DNA of 64,000 nucleotides from an uncultured virus (IMG/VR IMGVR_UViG_3300028241_002116) (IMGVR_UViG_3300028241_002116); one strand, 5' to 3'; counted from the first letter of the stretch, positions 6,089 through 32,643 are shown. Notes: generated by a model not told the origin, from the letters alone. Numbers and translations are program-made.

Positions 6089-6116
6089 AAATGTGCTATT
6101 CTATAGCAAATAAAAT

Positions 6117-6268
6117 CCCACCGCAACCGGATTAAGCGGAAAGGGCTTTGGAAAGCGATTCTGAAGGGTTGTCACGACCTTAACTATCGCAGTGTTGAAT
6201 CGGGTGAACGCCAGGGGCAAGCCGGTAGAGGAGGTTGAAGGAGATTAGCTATCAAATTCAACCTCCTC
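6117..6268 (+). ncRNA. putative structured non-coding RNA
   Basis: GC-rich intergenic stretch with stems CCGC/GCGG, GCGAT/ATCGC, GGTTG/CGACC and a perfect 12-bp stem 6228-6239/6257-6268. Confidence 0.45.
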
Positions 6269-6298
6269 GATTATAAATTTTGAAGAAGGAAAACAAAA

Positions 6299-16482: not shown

Positions 16483-16487
16483 TTCTA

Positions 16488-16715
16488 TTAAAATATTTCT
16501 GTATATATATGAATAGAATATCCTGGAGAACCTGCCGTTATTACATATTTTCCATAACCTCTTTTTTCCACATCTTCTTTGATTGATATTTGAAAGCAAG
16601 AGAAATGATTTTTAATGTCTTTATCTATGATTTTTATAATTTCTGAGGTTGTGGGATAGAATTCATAATCGAACTCTGAATTTTTGACTTGCTGAATTAA
16701 CTCTTTCACTTCCAC
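16488..16715 (-). pseudogene. possible N-terminal remnant of a DNA methyltransferase
   Basis: DYEFYPTT motif with no SAM-binding motif downstream; 75 aa. Confidence 0.35.
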
Positions 16716-16921
16716 GCTCCTTTACACTCTTCATACAGGCTTTCAAGCCGTTCCGTTGTAGCTTCCCTGTTTAAAATCATTCTTACATAGGTCTTTGACT
16801 TGCCAAGCAGTATTGACAGATTTTCCTGAGATCCTGCTCTGTTGATAAAACGTCCGATCTCCGAAGCATAGAATATTCGGAGATCGTGTTTAACCTGTTT
16901 ATGGTTTTTGTCGGTGATCAT
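16706..16921 (-). CDS. Cro-like HTH protein
   Basis: GSQENLSILLGKSKTYVRMILN. Confidence 0.6.
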   Translation of the reverse strand: MITDKNHKQVKHDLRIFYASEIGRFINRAGSQENLSILLGKSKTYVRMILNREATTERLESLYEECKGAWK

Positions 16922-17073
16922 TTTAATATTCCCATCGCCACAGCTTCTTCAAAAGTTCTGGGCCAAGCAGGTTCTTTAACCGCTGATTTATAAGTACCTT
17001 TAGGATTTATATAGTGTCCTTTAATTCTGTTCTTGCGCTGTTTTTTACTTTCATGTTTCTTTTTTTTGCTCAC
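16918..17073 (-). CDS. small basic hypothetical protein (not in ORF track)
   Basis: GTG start, MSKKKKHESKKQRKNRIKGHYINPKG..., overlaps both neighbours. Confidence 0.5.
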   Translation of the reverse strand: MSKKKKHESKKQRKNRIKGHYINPKGTYKSAVKEPAWPRTFEEAVAMGILK

Positions 17074-17249
17074 GCTCTTGCTCCTTTTTTCTCATAGTAT
17101 TTGACTCGACCTTCAATGAATCTGTCAGCCTGTTTTTTCTCTCTTTTAAAGTTTCTGCAAAAAGCCATAGCTTCTGCATCTGAATAATGCGAGAATTCAG
17201 GGAAAGCCTTTCTAAATCTGTTAATTTGTTCCTGTTTAATTTGTGTCAT
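17070..17249 (-). CDS. small hypothetical protein (not in ORF track)
   Basis: AGGAG RBS; MTQIKQEQINRFRKAFPEF..., 59 aa. Confidence 0.6.
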   Translation of the reverse strand: MTQIKQEQINRFRKAFPEFSHYSDAEAMAFCRNFKREKKQADRFIEGRVKYYEKKGARA

Positions 17250-17457
17250 TGTAATACTCTCCTTTTTATATTTAATCTTTAAATGTTATTTTTATAAGTT
17301 GGAAAATCAAAACTAATAAAACAATAAAAATTATGATTAAAATAATTATGATTATAATATCACAGGGGTTATTCCAGTTAATGTTTTTTATTTTTTCACT
17401 GTGAAGAAATATCGGCATAGGTACTGGCATAGTTTTATTCTCCTTTTTATATTTGAA

Positions 17458-17640
17458 TTATGATTCTTTGTTTTCTTGAATAAATTCAAGTGCTTCTTTT
17501 TTAGAATTAAATATGTCATAATAATAATCATAATTTTTACGACATTCCGAAATTGGCATACAGTTTATTTTGACTTCAATAGGTTCGGACATTTCAACTT
17601 TTCCAGAATCATAAACTTTTGTTTCAACTGCATATTTCAT
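17458..17640 (-). CDS. small hypothetical early protein
   Basis: AGGAG RBS. Confidence 0.6.
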   Translation of the reverse strand: MKYAVETKVYDSGKVEMSEPIEVKINCMPISECRKNYDYYYDIFNSKKEALEFIQENKES

Positions 17641-17644
17641 AATC

Positions 17645-17890
17645 TTATTCTCCTTTTATTTTATTACAGTCTTCACAATCTTTGTGACAGGGAACACCGT
17701 CACATAAGGCGCAGAGGTTGGAATGTGATTTTATTATTCCATTTGAAATAGCTTTCCATCCTGTAAAATCAAAATCAGGATTATCCTTTTTAAAGATTTC
17801 GATAGCTTCTTTATTTGTATAAGCTTCTATATGTGCTATAATTCCATGAGGTCTTTTACATATTAAATATTCTCTTTTAATTTTTTCCAT
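17645..17890 (-). CDS. small hypothetical protein with C-terminal Cys cluster
   Basis: CALC..C..CEDC. Confidence 0.55.
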   Translation of the reverse strand: MEKIKREYLICKRPHGIIAHIEAYTNKEAIEIFKKDNPDFDFTGWKAISNGIIKSHSNLCALCDGVPCHKDCEDCNKIKGE

Positions 17891-17940
17891 TTTGGTTCTC
17901 TCTTTATTTTTTTTTGCCGGTATGTTTCAACCGGCTTATG

Positions 17941-18147
17941 TTATAATGTTACTTTTATATTTGCTGAAAATGGAAATAAACCGCCAACTAATCTATTATT
18001 ATTATATCCTATTTGGTCTATGCATTCTGCTTTGCTTTTTGAAACCTTTTTATAAACCATTATTAAATCATTATCAATATCTCTTGTGGCTTTGCTTATT
18101 ACTTTAAACTCTTGACCTATTTTTAAATTAGCAAAAAAATCTTTCAT
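17941..18147 (-). CDS. small hypothetical early protein
   Basis: GAGG RBS before ATG 18147. Confidence 0.5.
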   Translation of the reverse strand: MKDFFANLKIGQEFKVISKATRDIDNDLIMVYKKVSKSKAECIDQIGYNNNRLVGGLFPFSANIKVTL

Positions 18148-18235
18148 CTCAATTACCTCTCTTTTCTTTATGTTTTTACAATACAGCTCGGATAAAATAT
18201 CCGGCTGATTGTCTGTGTTAATTATATTGATGAGT

Positions 18236-18433
18236 TTATCTTGCTCTAATTCCCCTATCATAAAGTCTTGACCTCGTAGTTTCTTTTTCTCCGTCAACGC
18301 TTATTCTTCCGATAACCTCATAACCGTTATTGTTTAAATCTTTTTTAAATGCCGCTTTTGATTCGTACTCTGATTCTATTGTTATTATTTCTTTGCTTTG
18401 TTTGTCTCTTGCTACTGCTATCATTTTTTTCAT
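18236..18433 (-). CDS. small hypothetical early protein
   Basis: AGGAG RBS before MKKMIAV; TTGACA promoter at 18497-18492. Confidence 0.55.
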   Translation of the reverse strand: MKKMIAVARDKQSKEIITIESEYESKAAFKKDLNNNGYEVIGRISVDGEKETTRSRLYDRGIRAR

Positions 18434-18603
18434 CTCGTTTCTCCTTTTCTTTAATCTCTTATGATGTAAAATTAACACATCCGTTAATCCCTGTCAAGTC
18501 TTTTGCGAAAAAAATTCACTTTTTTTGATTTTTTTTAATAATTGACATTGATACGATTTTATGAATTATTGCATATATGCAATAATTAAAATGGAGACAA
18601 TAC

Positions 18604-21216
18604 ATGGAAAGAGAACAAATTATTGATATAATAAACCGCAAGATTGATTATTCAGACATGGAGAAAGCTAAAAAGATTCTATCACGGAATTATGATATTG
18701 AGATACACAAAGCTGATGCTGAAGATATTAAAATTACTCTGTCAAAAGGCAATCCGGTAGCTATAAGGAATCACCTTATAATCGGTTATGATAATCTTAA
18801 AAAAGCTTTTGAGGATTCAGACGGTGATTTTTTTCAGATTGAAAGACCTGTTGAAGCGGTTACTATAAAAGAAGAGATTGATAACCGTGAACCTTTTGCA
18901 ATTATCGGACGTAATGAATGGGATCAGACATTGCATGATTTCTTAAATATTATTGAGCCACTTAAAATCGGAGAAGTTTTTCTCCCTGGACATTCTGCAA
19001 TATTCAATTTTCTTAATCCAGATGAAGAGACTAAAAAGAAAAAAATTCAATCTGTACTCTCCGGTGTTCAGATAAATGTTTATGAATCGCTGAACTATGT
19101 CGATAACTGTCTGCATGAAATGGGACATCTGTTCTGGAGAACTTGCATGAAGTTTGACGAAAAAATGCAGTTTAAAGAGCTACACAAATATCTTAAACCT
19201 TCAGCGATATACGAATATGAGTGGGAGAGATCAGACGAACAGGAAGTTTTCTGCACCATATATAAATGGTATCTGAAATCTATTCTAATTAATAAATCGT
19301 TCTATAATATTCTTGAGTTTGAAGAACCACAGGGATTGAAACTATTACAGCAAGTCATGGAGCGTAAAGCAAAGGATCAGGTTATAAATGACATCTGGGA
19401 AATGTCAAAGCATGAAGTCATGGAATATTTCAATCCGAAATTTGACAAGACAAGCGGAAAGTATATCAGGAAACAGGGATTGGCAGAAAAGATAAAAGAC
19501 ATTGAATTACCTGGTTATATACTCAATCAGATTGAGTCAGTTCAGGAAGGTGTTCCGTATATTGCACTTGGTAAAGCAATAGTTCCGGTATGTGGCAATA
19601 TGATTGATTTTGAGAAAGCTAAATATATAAGCCGTAAGCCTGACGGTAAAGGCGGTTGGATTTATACTTATCCTAAAGACACAAAAGGCAGAGATAAAAA
19701 GATAGAGGAAAAGAAAGAAGGTGGGAAAGTTGATCAGACACAAACACCTGAATTTAAGAAATGGTTTGGAGATAGTAAGGTTGTTGATAGTGAAGGTAAG
19801 CCACTTATAGTTTATCATGGAACTAATTCAGATTTTAAAGAATTTGATATAAATAAAAGTGGTGAAAGTACGGATACTGGTATGTGGGGAAGAGGTTTTT
19901 ATTTTTCTGATAATTCGGAATATGCATCTCAATATGCAAAAAAAGAAAAAGGAAATGTGAAACCAGTATTTATTTCAATAAAAAATCCTTTTATAATAAA
20001 ATCAAAAGATGATATTCCTGATATAAAAATTCCCAATGAAACTATTGAAGATATGAAAAATGCAGATAAAAATTACTCTAAAATGTTCACGGAATATGTT
20101 AAAAACAAAGGACATGACGGTGTTATTGTAGATATGAGAGGTGAAAAAGAAATTATAGCTTTTTCCCCTAATCAGATTAAATCAGCAACAGGCAACAGAG
20201 GCACTTTTGATCCAAATTCTGCTGATATGACTAAAGCTATAAATCTTGATAAACCAACAATTTTCTTAGATATGGATGGAGTGGTTACATGGTTCTCTGA
20301 GGCGTACAAAACTGCTTTTGACCGTGACGTATTCAAGGATGATTCATTTACTGTAACGCAAATGTGCTTAACTCAGCCTCACTTTTTCAGGACTATTCCG
20401 GTCTTAGAAAGAGGCAAAGAACTATATGACAGGTTATCTAAAAAGTATAATGTTATATTCCTCACTACTCCGATGCCAGGCATGGAGTATTGTAAATCAG
20501 ATAAACTGGAATGGTTAAAGGAAAACATCTGCGAAAATCCAACTGTAATATTCTCAGATAATAAAGCTGATTACGCACACTCAGCGCATGATATATTAAT
20601 TGATGACATGAAACATAATCTGGAGGGATTTTCAGAAGCCGGAGGAACTGCGATTGATTTCACGAAACACACAAACGATGAGATAATGGATAAGATCGCA
20701 GACACGCTCAACCCTCAGAAAGAGATTAAGATAATCAAGGAACAGATTAAGAATATGCAGGTTAATACTTCTCCTACGGAAAAGCAGAAAGAATCAGGTA
20801 TTTACCAAAAGGGGAGATTTGTAATTAAAGGGATTCCGGTTGTTATAGAAAATCCGAAGGGATCTGTCAGGTGGGGAATCGGTGAAAACGGCAGGAAATG
20901 GGTTTCAAAGATGAAGTCTCATTACGGATACATCCAGCATAAAGGGGAGGCTATTGATGGAGATAAAGTTGATGTATTTATCGGAGATAATTTCAGTAAC
21001 AACAAAGTGTTCGTTGTCAACCAGGGAAAAAATAATATGTTTGATGAACATAAAGTTATGATCGGTTATCCTGATATTAACACAGCTAAAGAATCGTACC
21101 TTGCCTGTTATGAAAAGGGATGGGAGAAAAACATAATGTCTATTATACCGACAAACACTAAGAAGTTAAAAGATTGGCTGAAATCAGGGAACATGAATGA
21201 ACCGTATAGAGACTAA
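18604..21216 (+). CDS. polyvalent protein: zincin-like + ADP-ribosyltransferase (ART-PolyVal-like) + HAD 5'(3')-deoxyribonucleotidase + inorganic pyrophosphatase-like
   Basis: HEMGH; FKKWFGDSKVVDSEGKPLIVYHGT..GRGFYFS..GHDGVI..EIIAF.PNQIKS; FLDMDGV..LIDD; IENPKGS..YGYI..DGDKVDVF..FDEHKV. Confidence 0.85.
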   Translation: MEREQIIDIINRKIDYSDMEKAKKILSRNYDIEIHKADAEDIKITLSKGNPVAIRNHLIIGYDNLKKAFEDSDGDFFQIERPVEAVTIKEEIDNREPFAIIGRNEWDQTLHDFLNIIEPLKIGEVFLPGHSAIFNFLNPDEETKKKKIQSVLSGVQINVYESLNYVDNCLHEMGHLFWRTCMKFDEKMQFKELHKYLKPSAIYEYEWERSDEQEVFCTIYKWYLKSILINKSFYNILEFEEPQGLKLLQQVMERKAKDQVINDIWEMSKHEVMEYFNPKFDKTSGKYIRKQGLAEKIKDIELPGYILNQIESVQEGVPYIALGKAIVPVCGNMIDFEKAKYISRKPDGKGGWIYTYPKDTKGRDKKIEEKKEGGKVDQTQTPEFKKWFGDSKVVDSEGKPLIVYHGTNSDFKEFDINKSGESTDTGMWGRGFYFSDNSEYASQYAKKEKGNVKPVFISIKNPFIIKSKDDIPDIKIPNETIEDMKNADKNYSKMFTEYVKNKGHDGVIVDMRGEKEIIAFSPNQIKSATGNRGTFDPNSADMTKAINLDKPTIFLDMDGVVTWFSEAYKTAFDRDVFKDDSFTVTQMCLTQPHFFRTIPVLERGKELYDRLSKKYNVIFLTTPMPGMEYCKSDKLEWLKENICENPTVIFSDNKADYAHSAHDILIDDMKHNLEGFSEAGGTAIDFTKHTNDEIMDKIADTLNPQKEIKIIKEQIKNMQVNTSPTEKQKESGIYQKGRFVIKGIPVVIENPKGSVRWGIGENGRKWVSKMKSHYGYIQHKGEAIDGDKVDVFIGDNFSNNKVFVVNQGKNNMFDEHKVMIGYPDINTAKESYLACYEKGWEKNIMSIIPTNTKKLKDWLKSGNMNEPYRD

Positions 21217-21234
21217 GCGAAAGGAATTTAAAAC

Positions 21235-21624
21235 ATGATTATTACAATAAAAATTCGACCTTCATTTTCTATGGGATTAACTATATTTTTATCACCTTCT
21301 TTATCACGAAAAACTCTCTTTGAATTATCATATCAAGAAGGTTGTATGTATTTTGACGATTTACCTCCCACTCCTTCTACTATTAAAAAACTAACTAAAA
21401 AGGAATGGGAGGTTTTAACAGAAGATTTAAAAGGTGAAGTTGAAATTATACCTAAATTTGTTATGGGTCTTGATGGTTGTACATATACTATTAAAATTCA
21501 GAGTGGATTTAATCATTATAAATATACATTATGGTCACCTAATTTTGATACAAGAAAAAATCCATTATGTTCTTTTATAAATAAAGTATTAATGAAAATA
21601 GATAAAACAGAATATTTAATTTAA
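21235..21624 (+). CDS. hypothetical protein
   Basis: AT-rich ORF between the polyvalent genes; GLDG motif. Confidence 0.5.
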   Translation: MIITIKIRPSFSMGLTIFLSPSLSRKTLFELSYQEGCMYFDDLPPTPSTIKKLTKKEWEVLTEDLKGEVEIIPKFVMGLDGCTYTIKIQSGFNHYKYTLWSPNFDTRKNPLCSFINKVLMKIDKTEYLI

Positions 21625-21661
21625 AGAATGAATATAAATATTAAATTAAAGAGGCTTCTAA

Positions 21662-24600
21662 ATGAAAATAGACTTCTCAAGATACTCTCCACAGGAACTA
21701 AGGGATCAGACAGAAATCGAATTCCAGAAATGCGGTGACGCAAAGCAAGCGGTTTATAATGCTTTAGCGTTTCTTAATAATATGTATGGAGTAAGTGATA
21801 TGCAGAAAGCAACACAACTTGAAATCGGTACTAAAATTGAGTCAGAGCATAAGGACACTTTTAAATTTATAAAAGACTACAAAAAGAAACACGGCGAATA
21901 TCCCCCCGAAGAAATGGTTTATAAGCAGATTGCTAAAGACCATCTATCCGAATTTAAAGATTATTATACGAGGTTAATAGCTATGGAGAAACAGGCTGAA
22001 CAGGAAATGAGTAAGGCTAAATATATAAAAAAGATCCCTGACGGTAAGGGCGGTTGGAAATATTTTTATGCAGAGCCGAAAGATAAAAAAGAAAGAAATA
22101 TTGAAGAAAAGAAAGAGAGCAAAAGTAATATTTTAAGAGAAATGTTACCTTCTTATTATAATTATACTGAAAAAGATTTAAAAAGAATTACAGATTTGTT
22201 GCCCGATAATAATTTTTTTGCAACAAAAGAAGAAAGTTATAATGATAATAATTGGTCAGAAGAAAATACAACTGGTTATAAAGAATATGAAGTCAAAAAC
22301 GGAAAAATGTTTTTTGGTTTAGATGGAGTTCAGGAATTACAAAAAGATATACCATCTCCAGAATATCCATATTTTTTCAGAGCAACGAACAACACTAAAG
22401 AACCTGAACTTGGTGATTTTAAATCAACAAATTATGTAACTGGTCAAAAAGAAAAAGGAATGTCAGTGTCTCCCCATCCGAGATATGCTGTTTTTAATAA
22501 TCTTAAACATCTATATGCTGTAACTGGGGAAATTGCAGGATATGGAAGTGATGGAGAACCATTATTGACAAATGTAAAATTTTTAAAAAAATTAAATATA
22601 AAAGAGGCAGAAAAAGAACATACTATAAAAAAATTAGAATCTGGTATAAAATTTTTAAAAGACAAAGGTATGAATGATTCTGGAAAAATATTAAATGTTC
22701 TAATGAGATTAAAAGGTTATAATCTTGAATCTTCCGAATCTCTCCAGAAGGCTAAAAAAGACTTAACTAAACTCATTAAAAAAGTTATAATAAACTCGAA
22801 GGGTGTTCAGCAGACTGTTTATACTCTTCCAGAAGGTGCAAAGACTGAGTGGCTTAATAAGTTCATGCAGTTTTTTAATTTCAAAGATTCAAGGCAAGCG
22901 AACCAGAAACTTGAAGCTGATTACAAAGCTAATAATCTCGATAAAAAAGGTGTAACATGGCAGCAGTGGAAAGATCATGTTTCGGAATATTTTAATAACA
23001 AAGATAAGTGGGATCGCTTTTTTAATAAAAGCACAGAGCAGAAAAAAGAGACGGCAAAGAAAGAGGAACAGAAAGCTAAGAAGTCTAATAAAAAGCCTAA
23101 GACTGCGGTATATAAGCTGTCTCTTATGAAGTTTATTGCTGGCATGTATGGTAAAGCTCCAGAGAAGGTGAAAGAAGATATTAAAGAAAAAGAAAGAGAA
23201 AAAAGACGATTAGAAAATAAAGTATCAAAAGAAGAACTTAAAAATGTTTCTGAAAAATTAAAAAATCAGTTTGGAAAAGAAGAATTTCCTTCAAATGTTT
23301 CAGATTTATACAATCATCCAAATTTTCCATATATTACAACTCAATTGATTAACGAAGGATTTTTAACAGTGTCAAGAGAGGTTAATGGGAATCTGTTATA
23401 TAAAGTCTCTGAAAACAATTTCGAGACAATGCCTGAGAGTGAAGAGGATATTCTTAACAGGTTAAATATAAAAACTAATAAAGATGCCATATTATATGTT
23501 AAGAATAAATCAAAAGAATACGGAACACAAAGAGACTATCTTAAAACAGATGAATATAAAAAACTTTATCCTATATTTAAAAAATTATATGACAAAGAAC
23601 AGGAAGAGTTAAAAAGAAAAAAAATAGAGGAAAGAGAAAAAAATAAAGTTAAAATAGATTTAGAGCATTTAATTCAAGATCAACAGGAAACAAAAGATAA
23701 ACCAGTTGAACCGGAAACACCAGAACAAAAAACAGAAGATAAGAAATTTGCACAAAGAATAAACGATGCAAGACCGGATAACCGAAACTGGGTAGAAAGA
23801 GAAATTACAGGTGTTACAGAACAAGAAGCTGAAAAAGTTGATATTCCTAAAATTGAATTTAAACCGAAGTCAAATAATGTAACTATACCGATGTTTCAGG
23901 GTGGCAATCCGCAAGTTGTTCCTGTCTGGGATTATTCAGATGTTACTCCAAAAGATATTTATCTTGTTAAAGAAAAAAATATATTAACAGCGGATCGACC
24001 ATCTTATATTCCTGAAATTGATGAAACTTTTTTCGCTGAAAATAAATATTTTATTCCTACGGTAAAACTGGGAGAAAATAAATATTTTATTCAGACTCAT
24101 AAAAGAAGAACGGTGTATGAGGGAAGGGGTGCGGAAGTTCAGGGAAATAATTATTATGTAGTTGTAACAAGGGATGTCTTAGCTTCTATGCAGGATTATT
24201 ATTTAAAGAAAGCTAAGATATTAAAAAAACAGGAAGTTGAAAGCTATAAACAAAGAACTGGAAGAACACCACGATCAGGCACTCGCATATCAATGATCGC
24301 TGAGAATAAAATGACATATCCACAAATGAACTTTATTCAAAGTTTTGTCGGAGGCGGGCGATATGATAATCATGCCGCTTGGGTAATGTATAAACAAATT
24401 AGACAGGATCTAAAACAAAAAACTGAGGATATGGAAATACAATTAGAGGAGTATGAAAATACTCATGCAAAAGGCAGAGAAACTGCTTACGGAGATAAAG
24501 GATTAAAAGATAATTTGTTAAAAGATTACGGTGTTAAAGTTAAAAGACAAAACGGTGCTGAAATTACAAATGAAGAAATTGGAGAGATTAAATCTGCTCT

Positions 24601-25201
24601 TGATACAGTGTATTCAGTTTTTGGAGATAGAAAATCGATGGCTCAAAATTTCGGGCTAAAAATCTCCCATGCTGGAGATGTAAGAATGCACGCAAGAAAA
24701 GCTGTTGGATTATTTATACCACGAATGAAAGCAATTGGTGTAACTGCAAAATATGGAGACAAAGGAACAGGTTTTATTCTGGCGCATGAATGGGGACATT
24801 TTATGGATTATTATGTTGGAAATAAAAACGGCAGACATTATATGTCTGATGATCCAGAACATGCCGCCGGACAGATTGCAGAAACATTCAGAAGCAGTAT
24901 GGCGAAAAAACAGACTTCAAAATATCAGACAAGGACTTGTGAATGTTTTGCAAGAGCAATGGAGCAGTATTGGGCTATAAAAACCGATAACAAAGAATTG
25001 ATGGCTGAATGGGACATGGGGAATCATCCCACAGAGGATAAATTCAAAGAAAGAGTTATGCCTTTAATCGACAAATTTCTCACCGAAAACGAGGAGCTTT
25101 TGAAAGCGTTTCATAAAGAGTTTGACAATAACAAAAAGGTATTTATAAAGAAGAAAAATCCTCTGACTGGTAAATTTGAATACAGGAAGGTAAAAAAATA
25201 A
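21662..25201 (+). CDS. polyvalent protein: DUF5661-like + putative ART-like + LPD1/zincin-like metallopeptidase
   Basis: GTKIESEH..IAKDHLSEFKDYYTRL; FRAT..GMSVS..GSDGEPLL; AHEWGHFMD..ECFARAMEQY. Confidence 0.75.
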   Translation: MKIDFSRYSPQELRDQTEIEFQKCGDAKQAVYNALAFLNNMYGVSDMQKATQLEIGTKIESEHKDTFKFIKDYKKKHGEYPPEEMVYKQIAKDHLSEFKDYYTRLIAMEKQAEQEMSKAKYIKKIPDGKGGWKYFYAEPKDKKERNIEEKKESKSNILREMLPSYYNYTEKDLKRITDLLPDNNFFATKEESYNDNNWSEENTTGYKEYEVKNGKMFFGLDGVQELQKDIPSPEYPYFFRATNNTKEPELGDFKSTNYVTGQKEKGMSVSPHPRYAVFNNLKHLYAVTGEIAGYGSDGEPLLTNVKFLKKLNIKEAEKEHTIKKLESGIKFLKDKGMNDSGKILNVLMRLKGYNLESSESLQKAKKDLTKLIKKVIINSKGVQQTVYTLPEGAKTEWLNKFMQFFNFKDSRQANQKLEADYKANNLDKKGVTWQQWKDHVSEYFNNKDKWDRFFNKSTEQKKETAKKEEQKAKKSNKKPKTAVYKLSLMKFIAGMYGKAPEKVKEDIKEKEREKRRLENKVSKEELKNVSEKLKNQFGKEEFPSNVSDLYNHPNFPYITTQLINEGFLTVSREVNGNLLYKVSENNFETMPESEEDILNRLNIKTNKDAILYVKNKSKEYGTQRDYLKTDEYKKLYPIFKKLYDKEQEELKRKKIEEREKNKVKIDLEHLIQDQQETKDKPVEPETPEQKTEDKKFAQRINDARPDNRNWVEREITGVTEQEAEKVDIPKIEFKPKSNNVTIPMFQGGNPQVVPVWDYSDVTPKDIYLVKEKNILTADRPSYIPEIDETFFAENKYFIPTVKLGENKYFIQTHKRRTVYEGRGAEVQGNNYYVVVTRDVLASMQDYYLKKAKILKKQEVESYKQRTGRTPRSGTRISMIAENKMTYPQMNFIQSFVGGGRYDNHAAWVMYKQIRQDLKQKTEDMEIQLEEYENTHAKGRETAYGDKGLKDNLLKDYGVKVKRQNGAEITNEEIGEIKSALDTVYSVFGDRKSMAQNFGLKISHAGDVRMHARKAVGLFIPRMKAIGVTAKYGDKGTGFILAHEWGHFMDYYVGNKNGRHYMSDDPEHAAGQIAETFRSSMAKKQTSKYQTRTCECFARAMEQYWAIKTDNKELMAEWDMGNHPTEDKFKERVMPLIDKFLTENEELLKAFHKEFDNNKKVFIKKKNPLTGKFEYRKVKK

Positions 25202-28188
25202 TGGCTAAAACAAGAATAATGATTAAGCTGTCAAACGGAAAGTATATTGATATGTCAAAGGCTAAGACCATAAAGCCTGAAGATAAAGTGCATACAGTTA
25301 TGAGAGAATTTAAAGAAGGTAAGCTGAAATCAAGCTCAGGTCAATTGGTGACTTCAAGAGAACAGGCTTTAGCAATCGCAATGTCGGAAAGCGGATTATC
25401 TAAAAATATGATCCATGATATTGCTATTGAATATGACTCAATGGAAAAGGCAAGACCTACGAAATATATTAAGAGAGTGCCTAAGCCTTCAGGTAAAGGG
25501 TATTATTACTTTTATACAAGGGAGCAAGTTAAAGAGTTCCGGGAAAAAGGTATAGTGCCTAAAAAGGAGAAGGGAGGTAGTTTCTGGGATAAAGTTAAAT
25601 CCTTTTTCGGTAATAACGCTGATGAAAAGGTTAATAAACTGCATGAGATAGTATCAGGTGCAGGAATATCAGTAACAAAGGATTCACTCGCTGAACATTT
25701 AGCTGAATATTTGAGCAATAAAGAGAAGTGGGATGCAAAGTTTAGGGGAGAGAAAAAAGAAAAGGGTGAGACAAAGCCTAAGACTGAATCTGCAAAGTCT
25801 GAGAAAAAAGAAAGCGGTGCAAAAAAAGAAGGTAGTAAATGGAATACTAATCTTATGAAATTTTTCTCTAATCAGTACGGTATGATTGGAGCGTTGAAAA
25901 AAGAAGAGGTTAAGAAAACAGACGATATTGAAACAGCGAATTATAAAGATCCGAAATATAATAAAGAAGAAAAGACTTCTATAATCCTTTTTCAAGAATT
26001 TGGTAATTCTGGAGTAGGTTATACTTATGATTCTTCAATTGATAAAAGTATAGAAAATGAAAAATCTATTTTAAAAAGATTTGAAAATGAAAAATATAGA
26101 AAACCTGAAGTAGCTATAAAAAATGTTAAAGAATCTATAAAAAAATTAGAAGATATTAAGAAACAGGGATATAATCATATATCTGAATGGGTTGAAGATA
26201 AAATAAATAAAATTGATTCTCAAAAAGACAACTTTGAGACTATGCCGGAGGGAAATGATATAGAAAAAGGTATAGAGGATTATTATAAAAAAATTACAGA
26301 AGAATTTAGCAATGAAAAACCTGATTTAGATAAAATCAAGAAAGTTGCTAAAGAAAAAGCTAATAAAATAAATTCAATTATGAGTAAAGAAATTTCTTTA
26401 GATACGGGTGGAATAGTTAAATCAAATAAGAAGTTTACACTTGAAAAATATGATCCAAAAGAAGATAAAATGACTTTTAAAGATTCTTCTGGTAAAGTTT
26501 TTGAAACAACTTTTTCTAAATTTGAAAAAGAAAATCCTTCTGTTTTTAAGCCCTCCGCAACCGAAGCACTGAAAACTTTTACGATAGTAGATAATAATAA
26601 TCCTGAAAGAACCGTAAAAGTGCAGGCTAAAGATGAAAATGAAGCTAAAGATAAAGGTGCTTCAGAACTTAAAACTACAAACATAAGAACTTATGAGTCA
26701 AGTAATAAAGTCGAAGCCCTGAAAGAGGAGCTGGGGAAGAAGAAGGGAGAGAGTAAAGAGAGAGAAATAACCGTTTTTGGAAAACAACAAAAAGTTAAAA
26801 CTAAGCCGATAGAATTAAATTTGGGATATGATCATCCTTTTGAAATTGCTAAAAGAGAATTTGGAAGTGGTCGCTCAGATTGGATTATTCTTGAAGGTAA
26901 TACAGGTTTAAAAGTTGGAGATGGTAAAACTCAAAAAGAGGCTATTAGTAATGCTGAATCTATGATAAAAAAATATGCTAAATCTGAGTCTGAATTTAAG
27001 CAAATAGTGAATGAGAATAAACCTGAAAATATTGCTAAAAAAGAAGCCGAAAAAGAAGCCGAAAAACAAAAAGCAATAAAAGAAGAAGAAATAAAAACAA
27101 AAGAAAAAATTAACAAAGAGAAATCTTCTAATATCTATTCCCCTGATGCTAAAAAACTTTCTTATGGCCCTATAAATATGAAAAATATATCTGATGAAAA
27201 AGAGCGTATGGCTTTTGAAAAAATGAAAGTTTCAAATATGATTACTGACGGCAATAGAAATTTTAAACCATTATTTTCTTATAGCACAGAAGGTCAGGAA
27301 CAGGGTGTCTGGACAGATTCAAGAATGATGATTATAGATAAAAAGATTGCAGATGAAATTTATAACACAAATAAACAACGTGAATTTTTAAGAGAAAAAA
27401 AGAAAAATCCAAACAAGTCTGATGATGAAATTATATTTCAAATTACAGAAAAAGGAGAAGGTAATTTTCCAAATTATAAACAGGTAATACCACAAGAAGA
27501 TTATATTTCCAAACAAGATGCTAAATTTACTGGAAAGTTTAAAAAAGGTGATGGTAAAGACAGTGTAAATATTGCTGAATATTCTGACGGAGAAAATACT
27601 TATTATTTTCAACCCGATCTTGTTGCTACTATAAAAAATAAATTTCCTAATGCAAAAATGCACTTAAACACATCTGGATCAATGAGTCCGGCTGTATTTA
27701 AAGTCGGAAATGAAATAAAGGCTGTTTTAATGCCAATGCAAAGAAAAGATGACTCAGGCCTTGAGTCACTTGAAAAAGCCCTCTCCAATCTCAGACATGA
27801 GATAATGTTCAAGGCTCAGCCAACAAAATATATCAAAAAAATACCTAATCCAAACGGAAAAGGGTATATCTATTTCTATACTCAGGCACAGGTCAAGGAA
27901 TACGAGAAAACAGGAAAACTCCCCGATGATCAGAAGAAAAAGCCTGATGTGAAAGAATCCACAGGCAAAGGAAACATTGAGATATTAAAGGAAAGCATTA
28001 AAAAGGTAGCTTCAATATTTGCTGATGCTTTAAGTGCTAAAGACGCTGTTCAGCCCACAGGTCAGGCAGTAGAGCAGACCGGTGAAAATGTCGCTCAAAA
28101 GTCTAAAGAGAAAAAAAGACTTGAAAAACAAAGAGACATAAGAAAGACTACAAAAAAGAATACACCGGAGGAAAAACCGACTAAATAA
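25201..28188 (+). CDS. polyvalent protein: DUF6496-like + beta-clamp-like domain
   Basis: KVHTVMREFKEGKLKSSSG..QALAIAMSE; GNFPNYKQVIP..PAVFK..AVLMPM. Confidence 0.7.
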   Translation: MAKTRIMIKLSNGKYIDMSKAKTIKPEDKVHTVMREFKEGKLKSSSGQLVTSREQALAIAMSESGLSKNMIHDIAIEYDSMEKARPTKYIKRVPKPSGKGYYYFYTREQVKEFREKGIVPKKEKGGSFWDKVKSFFGNNADEKVNKLHEIVSGAGISVTKDSLAEHLAEYLSNKEKWDAKFRGEKKEKGETKPKTESAKSEKKESGAKKEGSKWNTNLMKFFSNQYGMIGALKKEEVKKTDDIETANYKDPKYNKEEKTSIILFQEFGNSGVGYTYDSSIDKSIENEKSILKRFENEKYRKPEVAIKNVKESIKKLEDIKKQGYNHISEWVEDKINKIDSQKDNFETMPEGNDIEKGIEDYYKKITEEFSNEKPDLDKIKKVAKEKANKINSIMSKEISLDTGGIVKSNKKFTLEKYDPKEDKMTFKDSSGKVFETTFSKFEKENPSVFKPSATEALKTFTIVDNNNPERTVKVQAKDENEAKDKGASELKTTNIRTYESSNKVEALKEELGKKKGESKEREITVFGKQQKVKTKPIELNLGYDHPFEIAKREFGSGRSDWIILEGNTGLKVGDGKTQKEAISNAESMIKKYAKSESEFKQIVNENKPENIAKKEAEKEAEKQKAIKEEEIKTKEKINKEKSSNIYSPDAKKLSYGPINMKNISDEKERMAFEKMKVSNMITDGNRNFKPLFSYSTEGQEQGVWTDSRMMIIDKKIADEIYNTNKQREFLREKKKNPNKSDDEIIFQITEKGEGNFPNYKQVIPQEDYISKQDAKFTGKFKKGDGKDSVNIAEYSDGENTYYFQPDLVATIKNKFPNAKMHLNTSGSMSPAVFKVGNEIKAVLMPMQRKDDSGLESLEKALSNLRHEIMFKAQPTKYIKKIPNPNGKGYIYFYTQAQVKEYEKTGKLPDDQKKKPDVKESTGKGNIEILKESIKKVASIFADALSAKDAVQPTGQAVEQTGENVAQKSKEKKRLEKQRDIRKTTKKNTPEEKPTK

Positions 28189-28371
28189 ATGGAAATACTA
28201 ATCGAAAACGGAATTAAGAGGAAATGCCCTTTCTGCAATTCCATATATGCCATTGATAACGGAAATGAGATCCTTTACCGTAATATTTCTCTGGTGTATC
28301 TCGATAAAGCTAAGAGCATTACTACTATCAAGTGCAAGCAATGTAAACAGATAGTGGAAATTAAAACTTGA
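28189..28371 (+). CDS. Com-like zinc-ribbon protein
   Basis: CPFC...IKCKQCK, directly upstream of the protease gene. Confidence 0.6.
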   Translation: MEILIENGIKRKCPFCNSIYAIDNGNEILYRNISLVYLDKAKSITTIKCKQCKQIVEIKT

Positions 28372-28465
28372 CAGATTGAACAATATACTTTAAATCTGTA
28401 TGAAAATATAAAACAATAATTCCGCAGTTAAAAGGAAAAATGTTTAGACCGATACGAGGGGATAA

Positions 28466-29335
28466 ATGTTTTTCCAGATTAACGGCTTATCCATCCAAAA
28501 CCTTCAAAAAGCAACTGATGACAAGCTGATTAAAGTCGATATTGTCGCTAACCATCTGACTGAAGATTCAGACGGTGAACTCATACTCAAAGAAGCCTTT
28601 TCCCCCGATGTTGTGAAAACTTTTCTCGATATAGGTCAAATCGACTATTGGCACGATTCTAAAAATCCTTCTCTTTCAAAAGAAGAACGCAATAAAGCAA
28701 TTATAGGCAAGCCTATAGCTTTTAGATGGGAGAATGGTAAACCTATAGTAACTGCACAACTCACAAAATCTCATCCGATAGTAAGAGATATGCTTCCTCA
28801 TCTTGAAGCTGATAATCCTGTATATGCAGCAAGTGTTGGTGGCAGTAAAATGGTCATGGTTGTCAAAGATGAAACAGGTGAGGAAAAGCGAATAATTCCT
28901 AAAATTAAATGGGATCATTTAGCTATAGCTCCCTGTAACTCAGTAATCAACCGTGAGCCTGGCGTAAATGTCAGACTACTTCAGAAAGCCAATGATATAA
29001 TCGCTGAATTTAACGACATGAATTCATTTAAACTAATGTCAGGTCAGGTTTTTTCTCAGGAGCAGGAACTCAGAAAAGCTCTTGAAGCTCCTGAATCTGT
29101 TTCTGATTTATCGGAGACTTCCGGTGGAGTTGTCACAAAGCAGTCAATAGAGAAAAAGCCTGTATCGTTAACTTTCTCTGAAGATGAAGCGATGAAGTTA
29201 ATGAAAGCAATGTTCATGGTTAAAGATGATAAAATTCCTCTGACTAAAGAGGGGTACTACGAACATTTTAAAGACGATGCAGAATTTGCCGACAAGTCAT
29301 ATCGGCTGTTCGATAAATTTTTTAAAAAAAAATAA
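28466..29335 (+). CDS. prohead protease
   Basis: EDSDGE, DYWH, ASVGG, HLAI..N; precedes scaffold and capsid. Confidence 0.8.
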   Translation: MFFQINGLSIQNLQKATDDKLIKVDIVANHLTEDSDGELILKEAFSPDVVKTFLDIGQIDYWHDSKNPSLSKEERNKAIIGKPIAFRWENGKPIVTAQLTKSHPIVRDMLPHLEADNPVYAASVGGSKMVMVVKDETGEEKRIIPKIKWDHLAIAPCNSVINREPGVNVRLLQKANDIIAEFNDMNSFKLMSGQVFSQEQELRKALEAPESVSDLSETSGGVVTKQSIEKKPVSLTFSEDEAMKLMKAMFMVKDDKIPLTKEGYYEHFKDDAEFADKSYRLFDKFFKKK

Positions 29336-29352
29336 CAAGGAGCAATTGTAAC

Positions 29353-30141
29353 ATGATCACAAAAGAAGAACTGTTACAGAAAGGAATTGATCCTGAAAAA
29401 GCTGATATGATTATAGCGGCTCTTGAAGGTCAAAAAGATGATTCCTCTCCCCTTGCGCTTCTAAAAGCTGAAATGAGTGGCGGTTCAGAAGAACTGCTTT
29501 TCAAGGCTAAAGGGGAGGGAAAAGGTGACGGAGACGGTGACGAAGATGATGACGAAGCCGACTACGATGAAGAGTATATGAAAAAGTACATGAAGAAGTA
29601 CATGAAAGCTAACAAGAAAGAGGCTTCCAGTGCTGCTAAAGAAGTCGGTCTGTTCGCTGAAAAGATGGAAAAAGCAATCAATGATATTCCGTTCGATGCT
29701 GAAGGGGCTGTTGTAGAAATGGCGGATCTTTCTGATTTTCTTGATTCTCAGGCACTCTTTAACGAGAAAATGGCAAAAGCTGTTGAAGCTATTGTTGATC
29801 GTATAGAGATAATCGCCAACCAGAACGTCGAAAATTATAGCCTCCTCCACAAGGCTGCGGCTGTTACTGCTGAAACTGCGGAAATAATCTCAGGCATGGG
29901 AAACACTCCACAGGGAAGAAAAGGCGTAGTAATTGCAGACATGGAAAAAGCTGTTAAAACTGCTCCAGCTATGGTTGACGCTAAAATCGTTTACGGTGTT
30001 CTTTCTAAGGCGGTTGCTTCAGGGGACATGGTGGCTGGTCAAATAGGTTCTAAATTTGAAAGTGCAGGGAAGAGATTCAATGCTCTTTCTCAGAAAGAAC
30101 AGGAATATGTAAATGAACTTATCAAAAAGGAGGCTAACTAA
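29353..30141 (+). CDS. capsid scaffolding protein
   Basis: Acidic, helical, many xKA motifs; between protease and capsid. Confidence 0.75.
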   Translation: MITKEELLQKGIDPEKADMIIAALEGQKDDSSPLALLKAEMSGGSEELLFKAKGEGKGDGDGDEDDDEADYDEEYMKKYMKKYMKANKKEASSAAKEVGLFAEKMEKAINDIPFDAEGAVVEMADLSDFLDSQALFNEKMAKAVEAIVDRIEIIANQNVENYSLLHKAAAVTAETAEIISGMGNTPQGRKGVVIADMEKAVKTAPAMVDAKIVYGVLSKAVASGDMVAGQIGSKFESAGKRFNALSQKEQEYVNELIKKEAN

Positions 30142-30143
30142 TA

Positions 30144-31649
30144 ATGGACGAACTATATATGTTGGCAAATTCTGAAATCGGAACAGAATCCGGTTCACAG
30201 TTACAGGAGCTTGCTAAAGCTCTTTCTGCACCTGAAAGTAGCAATGATTTGTATAATACTCCAGGTGGTAGTCTCACAATGCAGAGTCTTGAAATGATGC
30301 TTGCCACTCTGACTCTTCAGGCAACAGATTTCACACTCTGGCAGGATATTAACAAAATGAAAGCCTATTCAACTGTTGAGGAGTACAATCAACAGATCGG
30401 GATTGGTATTTCTCATGGTGGATTTTACGATCAGTTTGAAAATCCTTCATTCCAGGATGCAGACTTCCAGAAACAAATTGCAATCGTCAAGTATATGCGT
30501 GAGGGCTGGAAAGTCGGTGATGTTCAGGAAGCTACAAGGACTACAATTGATGTAAGGACACGTCAGCAACAAGCCGCAATGCTCAGGCTTCTCAGAAACC
30601 TTGATCGTGCGCTTTATACTGGTAACTCTGCATGGATTCCTGAGTCAATCGATGGTCTGTCAAAGACAATCGCTGATTCATCTTCTGATCAGATATTCGA
30701 CATGAGGGGAGCTAACCTTTCAATGTCAACTTTTAACCTTATCGGTCAGCTTATAACAGAGGGTAACGGTAACGCTGAAAATGCGAATATATATACCTCT
30801 CCGGCTGGTGTGCAGAATCTTTCTAAGATTCTTAACGATGGGTCAACAACTGACAACTTCAGGAAAATCGTTAAATCCGGTGACGGTTCTGTTTCTATCG
30901 GTGGCAGAATAACAGAGATTATGACCAATTTCGGCCCTATGAAACCGAGGATGGATAAGATTCTTGGTATAGAGTTTGAAGGTAAAGGAGTTCCTAAGTA
31001 TTATAACAATAATACAAAAACATGGGTTGAGGGTGCAACTTCCGATAAAGCTCCATCTGCTCCTACAATTGCTCTTACTGTAAACGCTGCGACTGTTTCC
31101 GGTTCAAGGTTTGCAACTGGTATTGTCAGACCTTCCGGTGTGGCGTACTCTTACAGGGTTGTGGCGAGGAATAAATATGGTCTGTCTGTTGCTTGTGCTT
31201 CTGTAACTGCTGGAAGTAACGTAGCCGCTGGCGGTTCTATAAGTATAGCTATTACACCTAATCCGGCAGACTCTGGGGCTAAAACTCCTACATGTTTTGA
31301 GATTTACTCTGAAAAAGTCGCTGGCTCTGGTGAGTTCAGGTATATGGATACAAAAGCAGCCGATTCTACTAATCCGCTTGCTGCTGTTACTTATGAGGAT
31401 AAAAACCTCTATATTCCTGGAACTGCACGGATGTATGTAGTTGACCAGACTACTCAGGGTGAAAGCAGAGTTCTTTCTTACGCACAGCTTCTCCCTGTTC
31501 ATAATACAGATCTTGCGAAAATCGGGCCTTACTCTCAGGGTCTTATAAGCCTGTACGGAACTATGAAGTATTACAAACCGAACGTGCTTATCGAGATCAG
31601 AAACATAGGCGTTGATCAGGTAAATACTAATCTGTTTAATCTGGTATAA
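30144..31649 (+). CDS. major capsid protein (SPO1/Herelleviridae-like)
   Basis: QSLE..L, AYSTVEEY, IDGL, FDMRG, LAKI..LYG; leader ending LAKA. Confidence 0.9.
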   Translation: MDELYMLANSEIGTESGSQLQELAKALSAPESSNDLYNTPGGSLTMQSLEMMLATLTLQATDFTLWQDINKMKAYSTVEEYNQQIGIGISHGGFYDQFENPSFQDADFQKQIAIVKYMREGWKVGDVQEATRTTIDVRTRQQQAAMLRLLRNLDRALYTGNSAWIPESIDGLSKTIADSSSDQIFDMRGANLSMSTFNLIGQLITEGNGNAENANIYTSPAGVQNLSKILNDGSTTDNFRKIVKSGDGSVSIGGRITEIMTNFGPMKPRMDKILGIEFEGKGVPKYYNNNTKTWVEGATSDKAPSAPTIALTVNAATVSGSRFATGIVRPSGVAYSYRVVARNKYGLSVACASVTAGSNVAAGGSISIAITPNPADSGAKTPTCFEIYSEKVAGSGEFRYMDTKAADSTNPLAAVTYEDKNLYIPGTARMYVVDQTTQGESRVLSYAQLLPVHNTDLAKIGPYSQGLISLYGTMKYYKPNVLIEIRNIGVDQVNTNLFNLV

Positions 31650-31661
31650 GGGTGAATAGAA

Positions 31662-31982
31662 ATGGCATTCAATATTTATAAACCTAAACACGACCGACCG
31701 CTTGCTACTATACAGCAAGCGGATATGGTCAACAATCAGAGAATATTATCTGGAACTGATCCTGAATATCTGACAGATAACGGAGTGTTTTTTCTTGATA
31801 CTCTTGTCATTGAGTCAGGTAAAAACGTTACTATAAAAGATGGTAACGATGAAACAATAGTTACAGGATTGACAACAGGGTTTTCCAGTTCAAAAAATCA
31901 TATCCGCTGTGATAACGGCATAAAATTTACAGGGGATGTGCTGATGGCTAAAGGTTATATAATAGAGAATGTGTTTTTATGA
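31662..31982 (+). CDS. putative virion protein
   Basis: Follows the major capsid gene. Confidence 0.5.
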   Translation: MAFNIYKPKHDRPLATIQQADMVNNQRILSGTDPEYLTDNGVFFLDTLVIESGKNVTIKDGNDETIVTGLTTGFSSSKNHIRCDNGIKFTGDVLMAKGYIIENVFL

Positions 31983-32236
31983 TGTTATCAGTAAATGACA
32001 GATTGCAGTTTCAATATCTTCTCCCTGTTCAGGGAAATTTCAAAACACTTGAAATGGTGGAGAAGATATTAGCAAAATTGCGAATTGAAAAAACAGATGA
32101 AGAAGATAAAGAGTTTGTGTTTTCCAGAGATGAAATTGAATTATTAAAGCAGTCAATTGCGATACTGGATCAGGCGAATAAACTTAATCTTCAGAGTCTA
32201 CCAACTATAAGAAAAATTATGGAGGAAATCCAATGA
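31979..32236 (+). CDS. hypothetical protein
   Basis: Coupled ORF. Confidence 0.5.
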   Translation: MMLSVNDRLQFQYLLPVQGNFKTLEMVEKILAKLRIEKTDEEDKEFVFSRDEIELLKQSIAILDQANKLNLQSLPTIRKIMEEIQ

Positions 32237-32643
32237 GTAATTATAAAGGCGATTTCGATGTCTCTCAGGGACAGCCGAGTCTTTCCGCTTTGCAGTACCT
32301 TCAGGATCAGCTTCCTGCTGATGTGATTTCTACTCTTCCGAGAGTATGCAAAACCACTGTTTCAGGTAGCGCAGGAGTTGAAGCAGACATACCAATGGGT
32401 GCTGAAATAATCGGTGTTACAGTAATATGCAAGAAAACCAACGGTTCAGGTACTATGACTGTTAAAACTGGTGCTGGTACTCCGGTATCAATATCCGATG
32501 CGATAGCCTGTGAAACTGATAAAGCTGTTGATTACGCAGCGTCAATTGATGACGCTTACAGTATTGTCGGTGCAGACGGTGTTAAGATTTTCGGTAACGG
32601 TGCAGCCGATTACGGTGATGTTTACATTACTTACCTGAAATAA
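32233..32643 (+). CDS. putative capsid decoration protein
   Basis: Small beta-rich G/T/A protein ending VYITY. Confidence 0.5.
   Translation: MSNYKGDFDVSQGQPSLSALQYLQDQLPADVISTLPRVCKTTVSGSAGVEADIPMGAEIIGVTVICKKTNGSGTMTVKTGAGTPVSISDAIACETDKAVDYAASIDDAYSIVGADGVKIFGNGAADYGDVYITYLK

Follow-up and report, generated by a model that had tools for sequence, protein, structure and literature searches.

A lysine-alanine motif common to head proteins and giant polyvalent proteins of an uncultivated myophage points to probable processing of head cargo by the prohead protease

In a 64,000-nucleotide stretch of DNA from an uncultured virus (IMG/VR IMGVR_UViG_3300028241_002116; this whole stretch is referred to below as the window), three giant open reading frames (ORFs), here called giants A, B and C, precede the genes for a prohead protease, a scaffold and a major capsid protein (MCP) between positions 18,604 and 31,649. 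The phage is an uncultivated myophage with an SPO1-like capsid protein, and the window covers its head module. We found that a four-residue motif, [L/M]-x-K-A, recurs in the giants as well as in the head proteins. The giants are probably polyvalent cargo proteins carried inside the head and cut by the prohead protease, in the way T4 cuts Alt and its internal proteins. Established in silico were how often the motif occurs, to which fold and family the protease belongs, that the capsid site coincides in alignment with the point where a homologue's mature chain begins, and that the sites are placed at junctions and cassette ends; packaging, cleavage and injection of the giants are inferred.

All motif sites that an earlier note on this DNA had listed in the MCP, protease, scaffold, portal, MuF-like minor head protein and giants are present at the places given there, and four more were found in giants A and B (cf. 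Table 1). Counts of [LMF]-x-K-A were compared with 1000 shuffles of each protein. The three giants contain 14 copies, with 2.53 expected (z score 7.4), and the protease, scaffold and MCP together contain 12, with 1.29 expected (z score 9.5). For the portal and three minor head ORFs the count was 2 against 1.11 expected, and the remaining 79 ORFs of the window (14,519 residues) had no excess (10 against 8.79). The supposition that head proteins, as opposed to tail proteins, carry the motif beyond what their composition would give was hence borne out for the head proteins and the giants, with no enrichment in the other ORFs. None of seven neighboring patterns ([IV]xKA, [LMF]xRA, and [LMF] followed by xEA, xKG, xKS, xKK or xKE) was enriched, and five patterns of the same composition (reversed, ungapped, with a wider gap, or swapped) occurred only 1-3 times in the giants and 1-5 times in the head proteins, compared with 14 and 12 for the motif itself. 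When all 8000 patterns of the form a-x-b-c were scanned, LxKA (15 against 1.66 expected) and MxKA (10 against 0.92) came out on top among those seen more than three times, and the rest of the window held no pattern comparable to them.

The constraint acts on the protein and not on a DNA motif, since synonymous codons alternate at the sites, with Lys encoded by AAA 20 times and by AAG 8 times and Ala by four codons. A profile was built from 143 head and 109 cargo sites of the window and its relatives. In both groups Lys at P1 and Ala at P1' (the residues before and after the presumed cut, written K↓A below) are fixed, P3 is Leu or Met, P2 is unconstrained, Gln being enriched most strongly there, and P5 is acidic or polar. 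The wider forms of the motif given in the earlier note were not confirmed: Phe at P3 is at or below background (1% of head sites and 4% of cargo sites), and neither Ser nor Thr is enriched at P1' in this lineage.

The enzyme expected to read this motif is a divergent HK97/S78-type prohead serine protease with His63 and Ser123. Its identity was deduced from the invariance of these two residues, a profile-profile match to a protease recognized by Pfam as S78, and the fold of T4 gp21 as the top structural match. The window protease and two close relatives matched no Pfam family, including Peptidase_S78 (PF04586), at E values up to 10; the proteases of phages SP-10 and ISP do match Peptidase_S78 (6e-9 and 7e-6), and one of 82 distant family members matches Peptidase_S78_2. 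The protein belongs to a large environmental family (157 homologues at E ≤0.001), and both His63 and Ser123 are invariant in an alignment of 31 sequences consisting of the window protein and 30 of 120 listed homologues. A profile search over 1.84 billion representatives yielded 110 matches, 82 of which were aligned; at a mean column identity of 12%, all of them keep the equivalent residues, H61 and S121, which align with the His and Ser of the SP-10 enzyme. The profile of these 82 sequences was matched by hhalign to the SP-10 procapsid protease (probability 99.5, E 6e-23, 220 columns) and to ISP ORF9 (probability 98.4, E 1e-14), while a shallow profile gave only a probability of 47 and an E value of 2e-4 in the same kind of comparison. 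A structure predicted with AlphaFold2 (mean predicted local distance difference test [pLDDT] 68, core 75-91) was searched against the PDB with Foldseek. All three matches with E <0.001 were T4 gp21 (5jbl; E 5.5e-5, template modeling score 0.59 by target), herpesvirus proteases followed weakly, and the fold is assemblin-like.

The catalytic core of the protease spans approximately residues 16-174, and its sites 13, 172 and 202 (numbered, as all sites below, by the first residue of the motif) are kept across the 31 sequences and are located in or beside segments with pLDDT <50. Residues 178-274 are paralogous to residues 6-111 of the MCP, both containing the cleavage site and an ALxAPxS...GG...QS segment; identity is 33%, with E 1e-7 against relatives, and the stretch following site 202 is part of this paralogy. 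A protease C-terminus resembling the capsid N-terminus is also present in SP-10 and ISP, and this likeness may serve to incorporate the protease into the procapsid. At the junction at site 202, the sequence is [FLVIM]-x-K↓[A/S/T] in about nine-tenths of the 82 distant homologues, and F-x-K↓S is common among distant S78 lineages.

Cleavage after Lys by this protease is predicted from the point at which the mature chain of a homologous capsid protein starts. The window MCP has a predicted propeptide of 25 residues ending at LAK25↓A26 (nt 30210-30221), and in its alignment with SPO1 Gp6.1 (PDB 9vel, E 8e-29) the sequence LNK↓A falls on this site. The MCP of a staphylococcal Herelleviridae phage has been deposited twice, as chains of 463 (5lii) and 439 residues (9row). 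According to the alignment offsets, the latter lacks exactly the first 24 residues and starts at S25, and it was taken as the mature capsid protein. In phage ISP the first 24 residues end with VVK24, are followed by S25, and align with the window's LAK25↓A26. The assignment of the maturation site is based on PDB chain lengths and alignments, because no paper naming the site was found: the literature searched, outside which the original phi812 and A511 papers lay, names no site of Lys-specific cleavage in SPO1-like phages. Among 603 records, all below 60% identity, the MCP shares 21-29% identity with the capsid proteins of Herelleviridae and of Bacteroides phage DAC19; the latter, whose proteins are all annotated as hypothetical, is the nearest named relative (29%). 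The scaffolds of ISP and SP-10 contain seven h-x-K↓S/A sites each (h, hydrophobic; about 1.2 expected), and their proteases contain four and six, respectively (1.05 and 0.71 expected). In silico evidence thus supports [LM]-x-K↓A as the site of the prohead protease.

Other head proteins of the window are potential substrates, too. Cutting at all seven scaffold sites would leave pieces of 13-56 residues. The portal ends with MEK↓AIRLI (motif codons at nt 10762-10773), and [ML]-x-K↓A followed by a tail of 4-6 residues is kept in all seven portals examined. The MuF-like protein has LEK↓A at residues 61-64 (nt 14492-14503), and a site at residues 56-67 is found in five of six orthologues (the window and four of five relatives).

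We then compared 12 related loci, the proteases of which are 36-75% identical to that of the window. Motif sites numbered 42 in the proteases (3.7 expected), 78 in the ORFs at the scaffold position (5.8 expected) and 12 in the MCPs (3.4 expected; one in each, at residues 23-34), with 12 ORFs in every class. The upstream ORFs of at least 600 residues contained 95 sites (23.3 expected, 23 ORFs), and the shorter ones 14 (8.4 expected, 60 ORFs). In the downstream neck and tail ORFs the motif was depleted (4 against 13.9 expected; 131 ORFs of L001, L003, L017 and L020-L029), perhaps because cleavage sites arising by accident are selected against; no depletion was seen in the downstream ORFs of the window itself with the broader [LMFIV]xKA (7 against 4.9). 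The position of the sites relative to domains was analyzed in 22 giants with at least one Pfam match; three giants without a match were dropped, and the SNF2 helicase of L029, whose single site is outside its domains, was left out. Only one of 101 sites was in the interior of a domain (13.3 expected, binomial P 1e-5), and 23 were no more than 12 residues from a domain end (8.3 expected), a number reached in none of 5000 permutations. The placement of sites at domain boundaries proposed in the earlier note is therefore upheld for this set: they avoid Pfam interiors and cluster at domain ends. Of 57 internal starts of BLAST homology blocks between the window giants and those of relatives, 20 coincided with a site in both partners (randomly placed sites gave 0.59 on average and never more than 4), and of 53 ends, 8 fell at a site (random mean 0.43).

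The sites also frame exchangeable cassettes. In an alignment of 56 giant A sequences (the window's own and 55 of 120 listed homologues, out of 178 at E ≤1e-5), 46 lack the ADP-ribosyltransferase (ART) cassette and 10 have an inserted cassette in the same slot. All 10 inserted cassettes carry the motif at both flanks and none inside; their domains differ, and their hairpin tags are of two types that can replace each other. The tag K[YF][IVY]x[KR]xP..G[GK]..YxY was preceded by a site at a distance of at most 12 residues in 20 of 20 occurrences. Neither the hairpin tags nor the small modules matched a Pfam family at E values up to 1. A family of leaders, 17-28 residues long and ending in the motif, was found in 11 ORFs including giant C and the small ORF 33965-34189; giants A and B start otherwise. 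The leaders, comparable with the T4 propeptides, may be targeting signals. The small ORF, which lies outside the cargo cluster, has a cargo-type leader with LEK↓A at residue 17 and a hairpin of the second type, and it is the top match of the leader hidden Markov model, of which it was also a training member. A resemblance of cargo leaders to the protease N-terminus, seen by eye, was not supported: when 375 ORFs were searched with the model built from the 11 leaders, the proteases were not recovered (best E 3.2).

With a single distant protease (P0139) as a query, one extra lineage (L040) was retrieved, in which K↓S/T is enriched in head ORFs (7 against 2.6 expected) and in upstream ORFs (18 against 10.3, P 0.02). 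Upstream of the head genes of L040, positions 4485-7607 encode a SNF2/ResIII helicase together with an S-adenosylmethionine lyase domain, an architecture like that of the anti-restriction protein DarB.

Giant A is composed of an N-terminal domain with HEMGH at 171 (residues 1-338), a hairpin tag with an ART-PolyVal cassette (residues 339-544), and an NT5C/HAD nucleotidase with InPase (residues 545-870). Pfam places ART-PolyVal at 395-535 (3e-34), NT5C/HAD from about 545 (7e-8) and InPase at 726-860 (7e-43), while Foldseek identified a deoxyribonucleotidase fold (E 1e-6) and a tankyrase/PARP fold (E 1e-3). The P1 Lys residues are 21, 67, 324, 338 and 544. Among the 56 aligned sequences, HEMGH is nearly invariant, and the strict motif is present at site 542 in 45, at 322 in 37, at 19 in 30, at 65 in 11 and at 336 in 10. 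Site 542 (cf. Table 1) is located in a low-confidence linker (530-548), 11 residues ahead of the HAD motif DMDG, and K544 is nearly invariant, while E, Q, T and K all occur at P2. In the AlphaFold2 model (mean pLDDT 83; segments 343-376 and 530-548 <50), the only long linkers of low confidence are those next to sites 336 and 542. By this model, two of the five motifs of giant A are at flexible junctions, and sites 19, 65 and 322 are inside the confidently folded N-terminal domain. The best-supported predicted products would be 1-338, 339-544 (ART) and 545-870 (nucleotidase and pyrophosphatase).

In giant B, a propeptide (residues 1-49) is followed by DUF5661 (50-118; Pfam 3e-6 at 50-110), a hairpin tag with a segment of no recognized family (119-363), the second hairpin type leading into a phrog_22901 region (364-1148; 5e-83) with HEWGH at 1042, and a 31-residue tail (1149-1179). 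Among aligned relatives its sites are kept in 5 of 7 (47), 2 of 4 (116), 4 of 4 (361) and 6 of 6 (1146). Segment 119-363 had been described as ART-like; it had no match in Pfam, PHROG or NCBIfam, and Atlas scores of at most 0.84 pointed to no family. Giant C consists of a leader (1-20), DUF6496 (21-83; Pfam 7e-7 at 27-64), a hairpin tag with a long region of no recognized family and a weakly beta-clamp-like end (84-859), a 12-residue spacer (860-871), and a conserved basic C-terminal module (872-995, nt 27814-28185). Its sites are kept in 2 of 4 (18), 8 of 10 (81), 2 of 2 (857) and 6 of 7 (869) relatives. The sites rated as strongly kept in the three giants are A542, A322, B47, B361, B1146, C81, C857 and C869, with A65 and B848 weak or absent. 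The DUF5661-like and DUF6496-like domains read earlier in giants B and C proved correct by the Pfam matches above, whereas the clamp-like domain of giant C gained only weak backing (phrog_947 processivity factor, E 7e-4 at 783-848; TIGR00663, E 0.023; Atlas rows). As a separate observation, residues from about 640 to 859 (nt 27118-27780) contain a possible beta-clamp-like domain, with FPNYKQVIP and a C-terminal end resembling DnaN, in a presumed virion protein.

The C-terminal module of giant C combines a hairpin tag with a conserved helix-like stretch and a strongly basic tail. In every case it is the final module ahead of the protease, and two tandem sites about 11 residues apart precede it. 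The last approximately 137 residues are 63-74% identical in three relatives, and the tandem sites and the module were aligned in 9 of 13 relatives. The module could be a DNA-associated internal head protein. A search for a stand-alone copy among proteins of 74-238 residues returned one match, on a 1.8-kb contig, and was uninformative. As multi-domain polyvalent proteins, giants B and C make a weaker case than giant A (LPD1 only at E 0.04, besides the clamp-like leads). The earlier description of the giants as about 3000 residues of enzymes accordingly suits giant A, with its ART-PolyVal, NT5C/HAD, InPase and conserved HExxH, but not giants B and C, in which no enzyme domain was firmly identified.

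Several points weigh against the giants being cargo cut by the prohead protease. About 2.5 of their 14 sites are expected by chance, and two or three sites look like chance occurrences: B848 is kept in none of five aligned relatives, protease site 245 is not conserved in the 31 sequences and sits in a confident helix of the model, and A65, poorly kept, is doubtful. Because giant A sites 19, 65 and 322 are inside the confidently modeled domain 1-340 (pLDDT 82-96), they may be inaccessible and their use is in doubt. Packaging of the giants is deduced from gene position, family labels (phrog_4660, minor head protein; phrog_20705, virion structural protein) and the shared motif; an InPase protein of a Cellulophaga phage is also annotated as virion structural. 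The 12 relatives share ancestry, so that counts from them are not independent, the covariation test is weak as it relies on the L040 lineage alone, and ORFs were called by a simple longest-ORF rule. Finally, the conserved HExxH of giants A and B would allow self-processing by a zincin, which we regard as unlikely.

Of the alternatives, the one that survives best, though we would not expect it to be true, is that the motif in the giants is not cut at all, or is cut only at the N-terminal leaders, being a relic of gene fusion or a docking signal for scaffold or protease, with the giants acting intact. Gene fusion is suggested by leader-like hairpins that precede some internal sites (e.g., giant A 325-338 and L017 5518 residues 111-123); three of five giant A sites are inside a folded domain of the model, and the virion RNA polymerase of N4 is packaged unprocessed, as mentioned in the polyvalent protein study (PMC5512222). 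Relics should decay, yet here K and A are retained despite drift at P2 and in the codons: the strict motif persists at A542 in 45/56, at B1146 in 6/6 and at C81 in 8/10 sequences, every one of the 10 inserted cassettes keeps a site at each end, and the sites avoid domain interiors. Still less probable, in our judgment, is cleavage of the junctions, either in the head or after injection, by the zincin-like (MPTase) domains that giants A and B contain, with the prohead protease limited to the capsid, the scaffold and itself. Both domains have the HExxH sequence (HEMGH, nearly invariant in A; HEWGH in B), the cassette slot of giant A directly follows the HExxH domain, and PMC5512222 argues, citing P1 DdrB, that MPTase domains process polyvalent proteins. 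However, the MCP, scaffold and protease use the same four-residue signal with the same preferences at P5, P3 and P2, the signal also occurs in head modules of Herelleviridae showing no such zincin, sites occur without any HExxH in giant C and in several small ORFs with leaders, and a second protease of identical short specificity would be unparsimonious. That the motif is a mere by-product of composition or of helix-forming Lys/Ala/Leu-rich sequence can practically be dismissed, for even though the giants are Lys-rich and the scaffold Ala/Lys/Glu-rich, the shuffles, the flat counts of the seven related and five same-composition patterns, the other 79 ORFs without excess and the depleted neck and tail ORFs of the relatives all speak against it.

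If the giants are indeed cut by the prohead protease, maturation of the head might proceed as follows. The protease would cut after Lys in [L/M]-x-K↓A, the MCP would lose its 25-residue propeptide, the scaffold would be broken down at its seven sites, the protease would trim itself at its three conserved sites, and the portal tail and the MuF-like protein would probably be clipped. The giants, built of cassettes in the order of site, short beta-hairpin-like tag, domain and site, would be co-assembled into the procapsid, where the prohead protease would free their modules. Giant A would yield a zincin-like domain, an ADP-ribosyltransferase and a nucleotidase-pyrophosphatase; giants B and C would yield small DUF5661 and DUF6496 pieces, large uncharacterized pieces and the conserved basic C-terminal module. 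The freed pieces would remain in the head and enter the host alongside the DNA.

The maturation of packaged proteins by a head protease at a short motif is textbook knowledge for T4 and phiKZ-like phages. In T4, gp21 cuts L/I-x-E in the capsid, scaffold and internal proteins and in the ART Alt, and N-terminal targeting propeptides of 10-19 residues are removed at such sites, as described in PMC9026906. The system of the window resembles this in having one short signal common to capsid, scaffold, protease and presumed cargo, an ADP-ribosyltransferase among the presumed cargo, short N-terminal leaders ending at a site, and a scaffold predicted to be cut into many pieces. It differs from T4 in that the protease is of the HK97/S78 lineage and not of the gp21/S77 lineage, with predicted cleavage after Lys rather than Glu, the presumed cargo consists of multi-module polyproteins of 870-1179 residues with internal sites and not of single small proteins, and the capsid is SPO1-like. 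It would therefore work like the T4 system without being a member of it, given the S78-like protease and P1 Lys. In phiKZ and SPN3US, where gp175 and gp245, respectively, cut inner-body and ejection proteins, many head proteins, including ejected ones, are likewise cut at a short motif that can be present in several copies in one substrate (PMC10052503, PMC9026906). Their proteases are gp21 homologues cutting after Glu, and the cuts reported for them mostly remove N-terminal propeptides and do not part unrelated enzyme domains.

With the polyvalent proteins of Iyer et al. (2017, PMC5512222), giant A shares ART-PolyVal, InPase and a zincin-type HExxH, and relatives carry LPD1, RadC and DUF5661; the genes are among virion genes in both cases, and delivery with the DNA is predicted. 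Processing was ascribed there to the proteins' own zincin (MPTase) domains, whereas the junction signal found here is that of the prohead protease. In the literature searched, no connection is drawn between the two where "polyvalent protein" and "prohead protease" co-occur. Like Herelleviridae (SPO1, Kayvirus), the phage has a homologous MCP with the maturation site at an aligned position, multiple h-x-K↓S/A copies in scaffold and protease, and a protease C-terminus that mimics the capsid N-terminus. Unlike them, it has a genome of about 80 kb (vs 130-170 kb), Ala almost always at P1', and MCP identity to them of only about 21-29%, and no giant polyvalent genes are present beside the protease in the inspected head modules of ISP and SP-10. 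Three aspects appear to be new: the extension of head-protease maturation to proteases of the S78 lineage that use a Lys↓Ala code, its extension to polyvalent proteins arranged as site-bounded cassettes, and the hairpin tags at the new N-termini.

The features of the head module are compiled in Table 1. According to comparisons of the window proteins with Pfam and PHROG, the plus strand between about 9 and 44 kb encodes the structural proteins of a tailed phage, with neck, sheath and tail genes downstream of the MCP. The virus record of the same phage has 80,451 bases and is estimated to be 94% complete, and no named phage matches the window at the DNA level. A region between giant C and the protease that had looked intergenic contains the zinc-ribbon ORF, whose frame and cysteine codons are kept in a DNA alignment of nine sequences. 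The TTGACA box ahead of the protease gene may serve the protease-scaffold-MCP unit as its -35 element. A promoter and terminator scan of 16000-32500 was uninformative (81 promoter-like sites vs 60 in shuffles), and Rfam and tRNA scans found nothing. The homologue of outer-membrane phospholipase A1, which has no motif site, is unusual for a phage in its position inside the head module and hints at a Gram-negative host. On the minus strand, small ORFs at 16488-18297 with a reversed GC skew break the plus-strand head module between a MuF-associated ORF and giant A.

Table 1. Features of the head module discussed in the text (positions in nt of the window; motif sites numbered by their first residue).
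Feature	Position	Strand	Length (residues)	Basis or remark	Motif sites
Portal	9136-10788	+	550	Pfam Phage_portal E 6e-18, phrog_12	MEKA 543 of 550
Phospholipase A1 homologue	13077-13799	+		Pfam PLA1 E 2e-36	
MuF-like minor head protein	14312-15706	+	464	phrog_2468 head morphogenesis E 8e-4	LEKA 61
Giant A, polyvalent protein	18604-21216	+	870	Pfam ART-PolyVal, NT5C, InPase	FEKA 336, MTKA 542 (listed earlier); MEKA 19, LKKA 65, LGKA 322 (missed earlier)
MTK↓A site of giant A, boundary of ART cassette and nucleotidase	20227-20238	+		Best single junction example	Residue 542
Giant B	21662-25201	+	1179	Pfam DUF5661, phrog_22901	MQKA 47, MSKA 116, LQKA 361, LLKA 1146 (listed earlier); LKKA 848 (missed earlier)
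Giant C	25201-28188	+	995	Pfam DUF6496	MSKA 18, MEKA 81, LEKA 857, MFKA 869
Zinc-ribbon ORF (CPFC...CKQC), between giant C and protease	28189-28371	+	60		LDKA
TTGACA box, upstream of protease gene	28368-28373	+		Kept in 7/9 aligned relatives	
Prohead protease	28466-29335	+	289	Profile homology, invariant His/Ser, fold	LQKA 13, LQKA 172, LRKA 202, LMKA 245
Scaffold	29353-30141	+	262	Position between protease and MCP; acidic, Ala/Lys-rich	LLKA 36, LFKA 49, MEKA 105, MAKA 140, LHKA 165, MEKA 197, LSKA 217
MCP	30144-31649	+	501	phrog_752 E 1e-68	LAKA 23
Small ORF in neck/tail region, candidate small cargo protein	33965-34189	+	74	Leader, motif, hairpin	

A bolder possibility, to which we give less than even credence, is that these elements form a plug-in cargo system in a broad clade of phages with S78 proteases. 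A gene gaining the cassette frame, that is, [L/M]-x-K↓A, a tag (KYIxRxPxxGGWxYxY or KDLxKLxxKxIxxKxGxxxTVWV), a domain and the next site, would become a capsid-delivered effector, and cassettes would be strung into polyproteins. The tag, always at the new N-terminus, would be a retention or ejection signal, and the prohead protease would be a true polyprotein protease, as in RNA viruses. Should this be the case, the mature cargo of virions would be readable directly from metagenomic sequence.

For the phages themselves, the motif [L/M]-x-K↓A predicts the mature products of the capsid, scaffold and protease and of about 3000 residues of cargo in a widespread uncultivated family; in a wider protease clade, which includes Herelleviridae, a related h-x-K↓A/S/T signal is found. 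The published view of polyvalent proteins is that of self-cleavage by zincins, while the evidence presented here points to the head protease. Sets of effectors would then evolve by the exchange of cassettes carrying their own cleavage sites, and the cassette frame suggests a route to load foreign proteins into phage heads, as has been done with the T4 targeting sequence.

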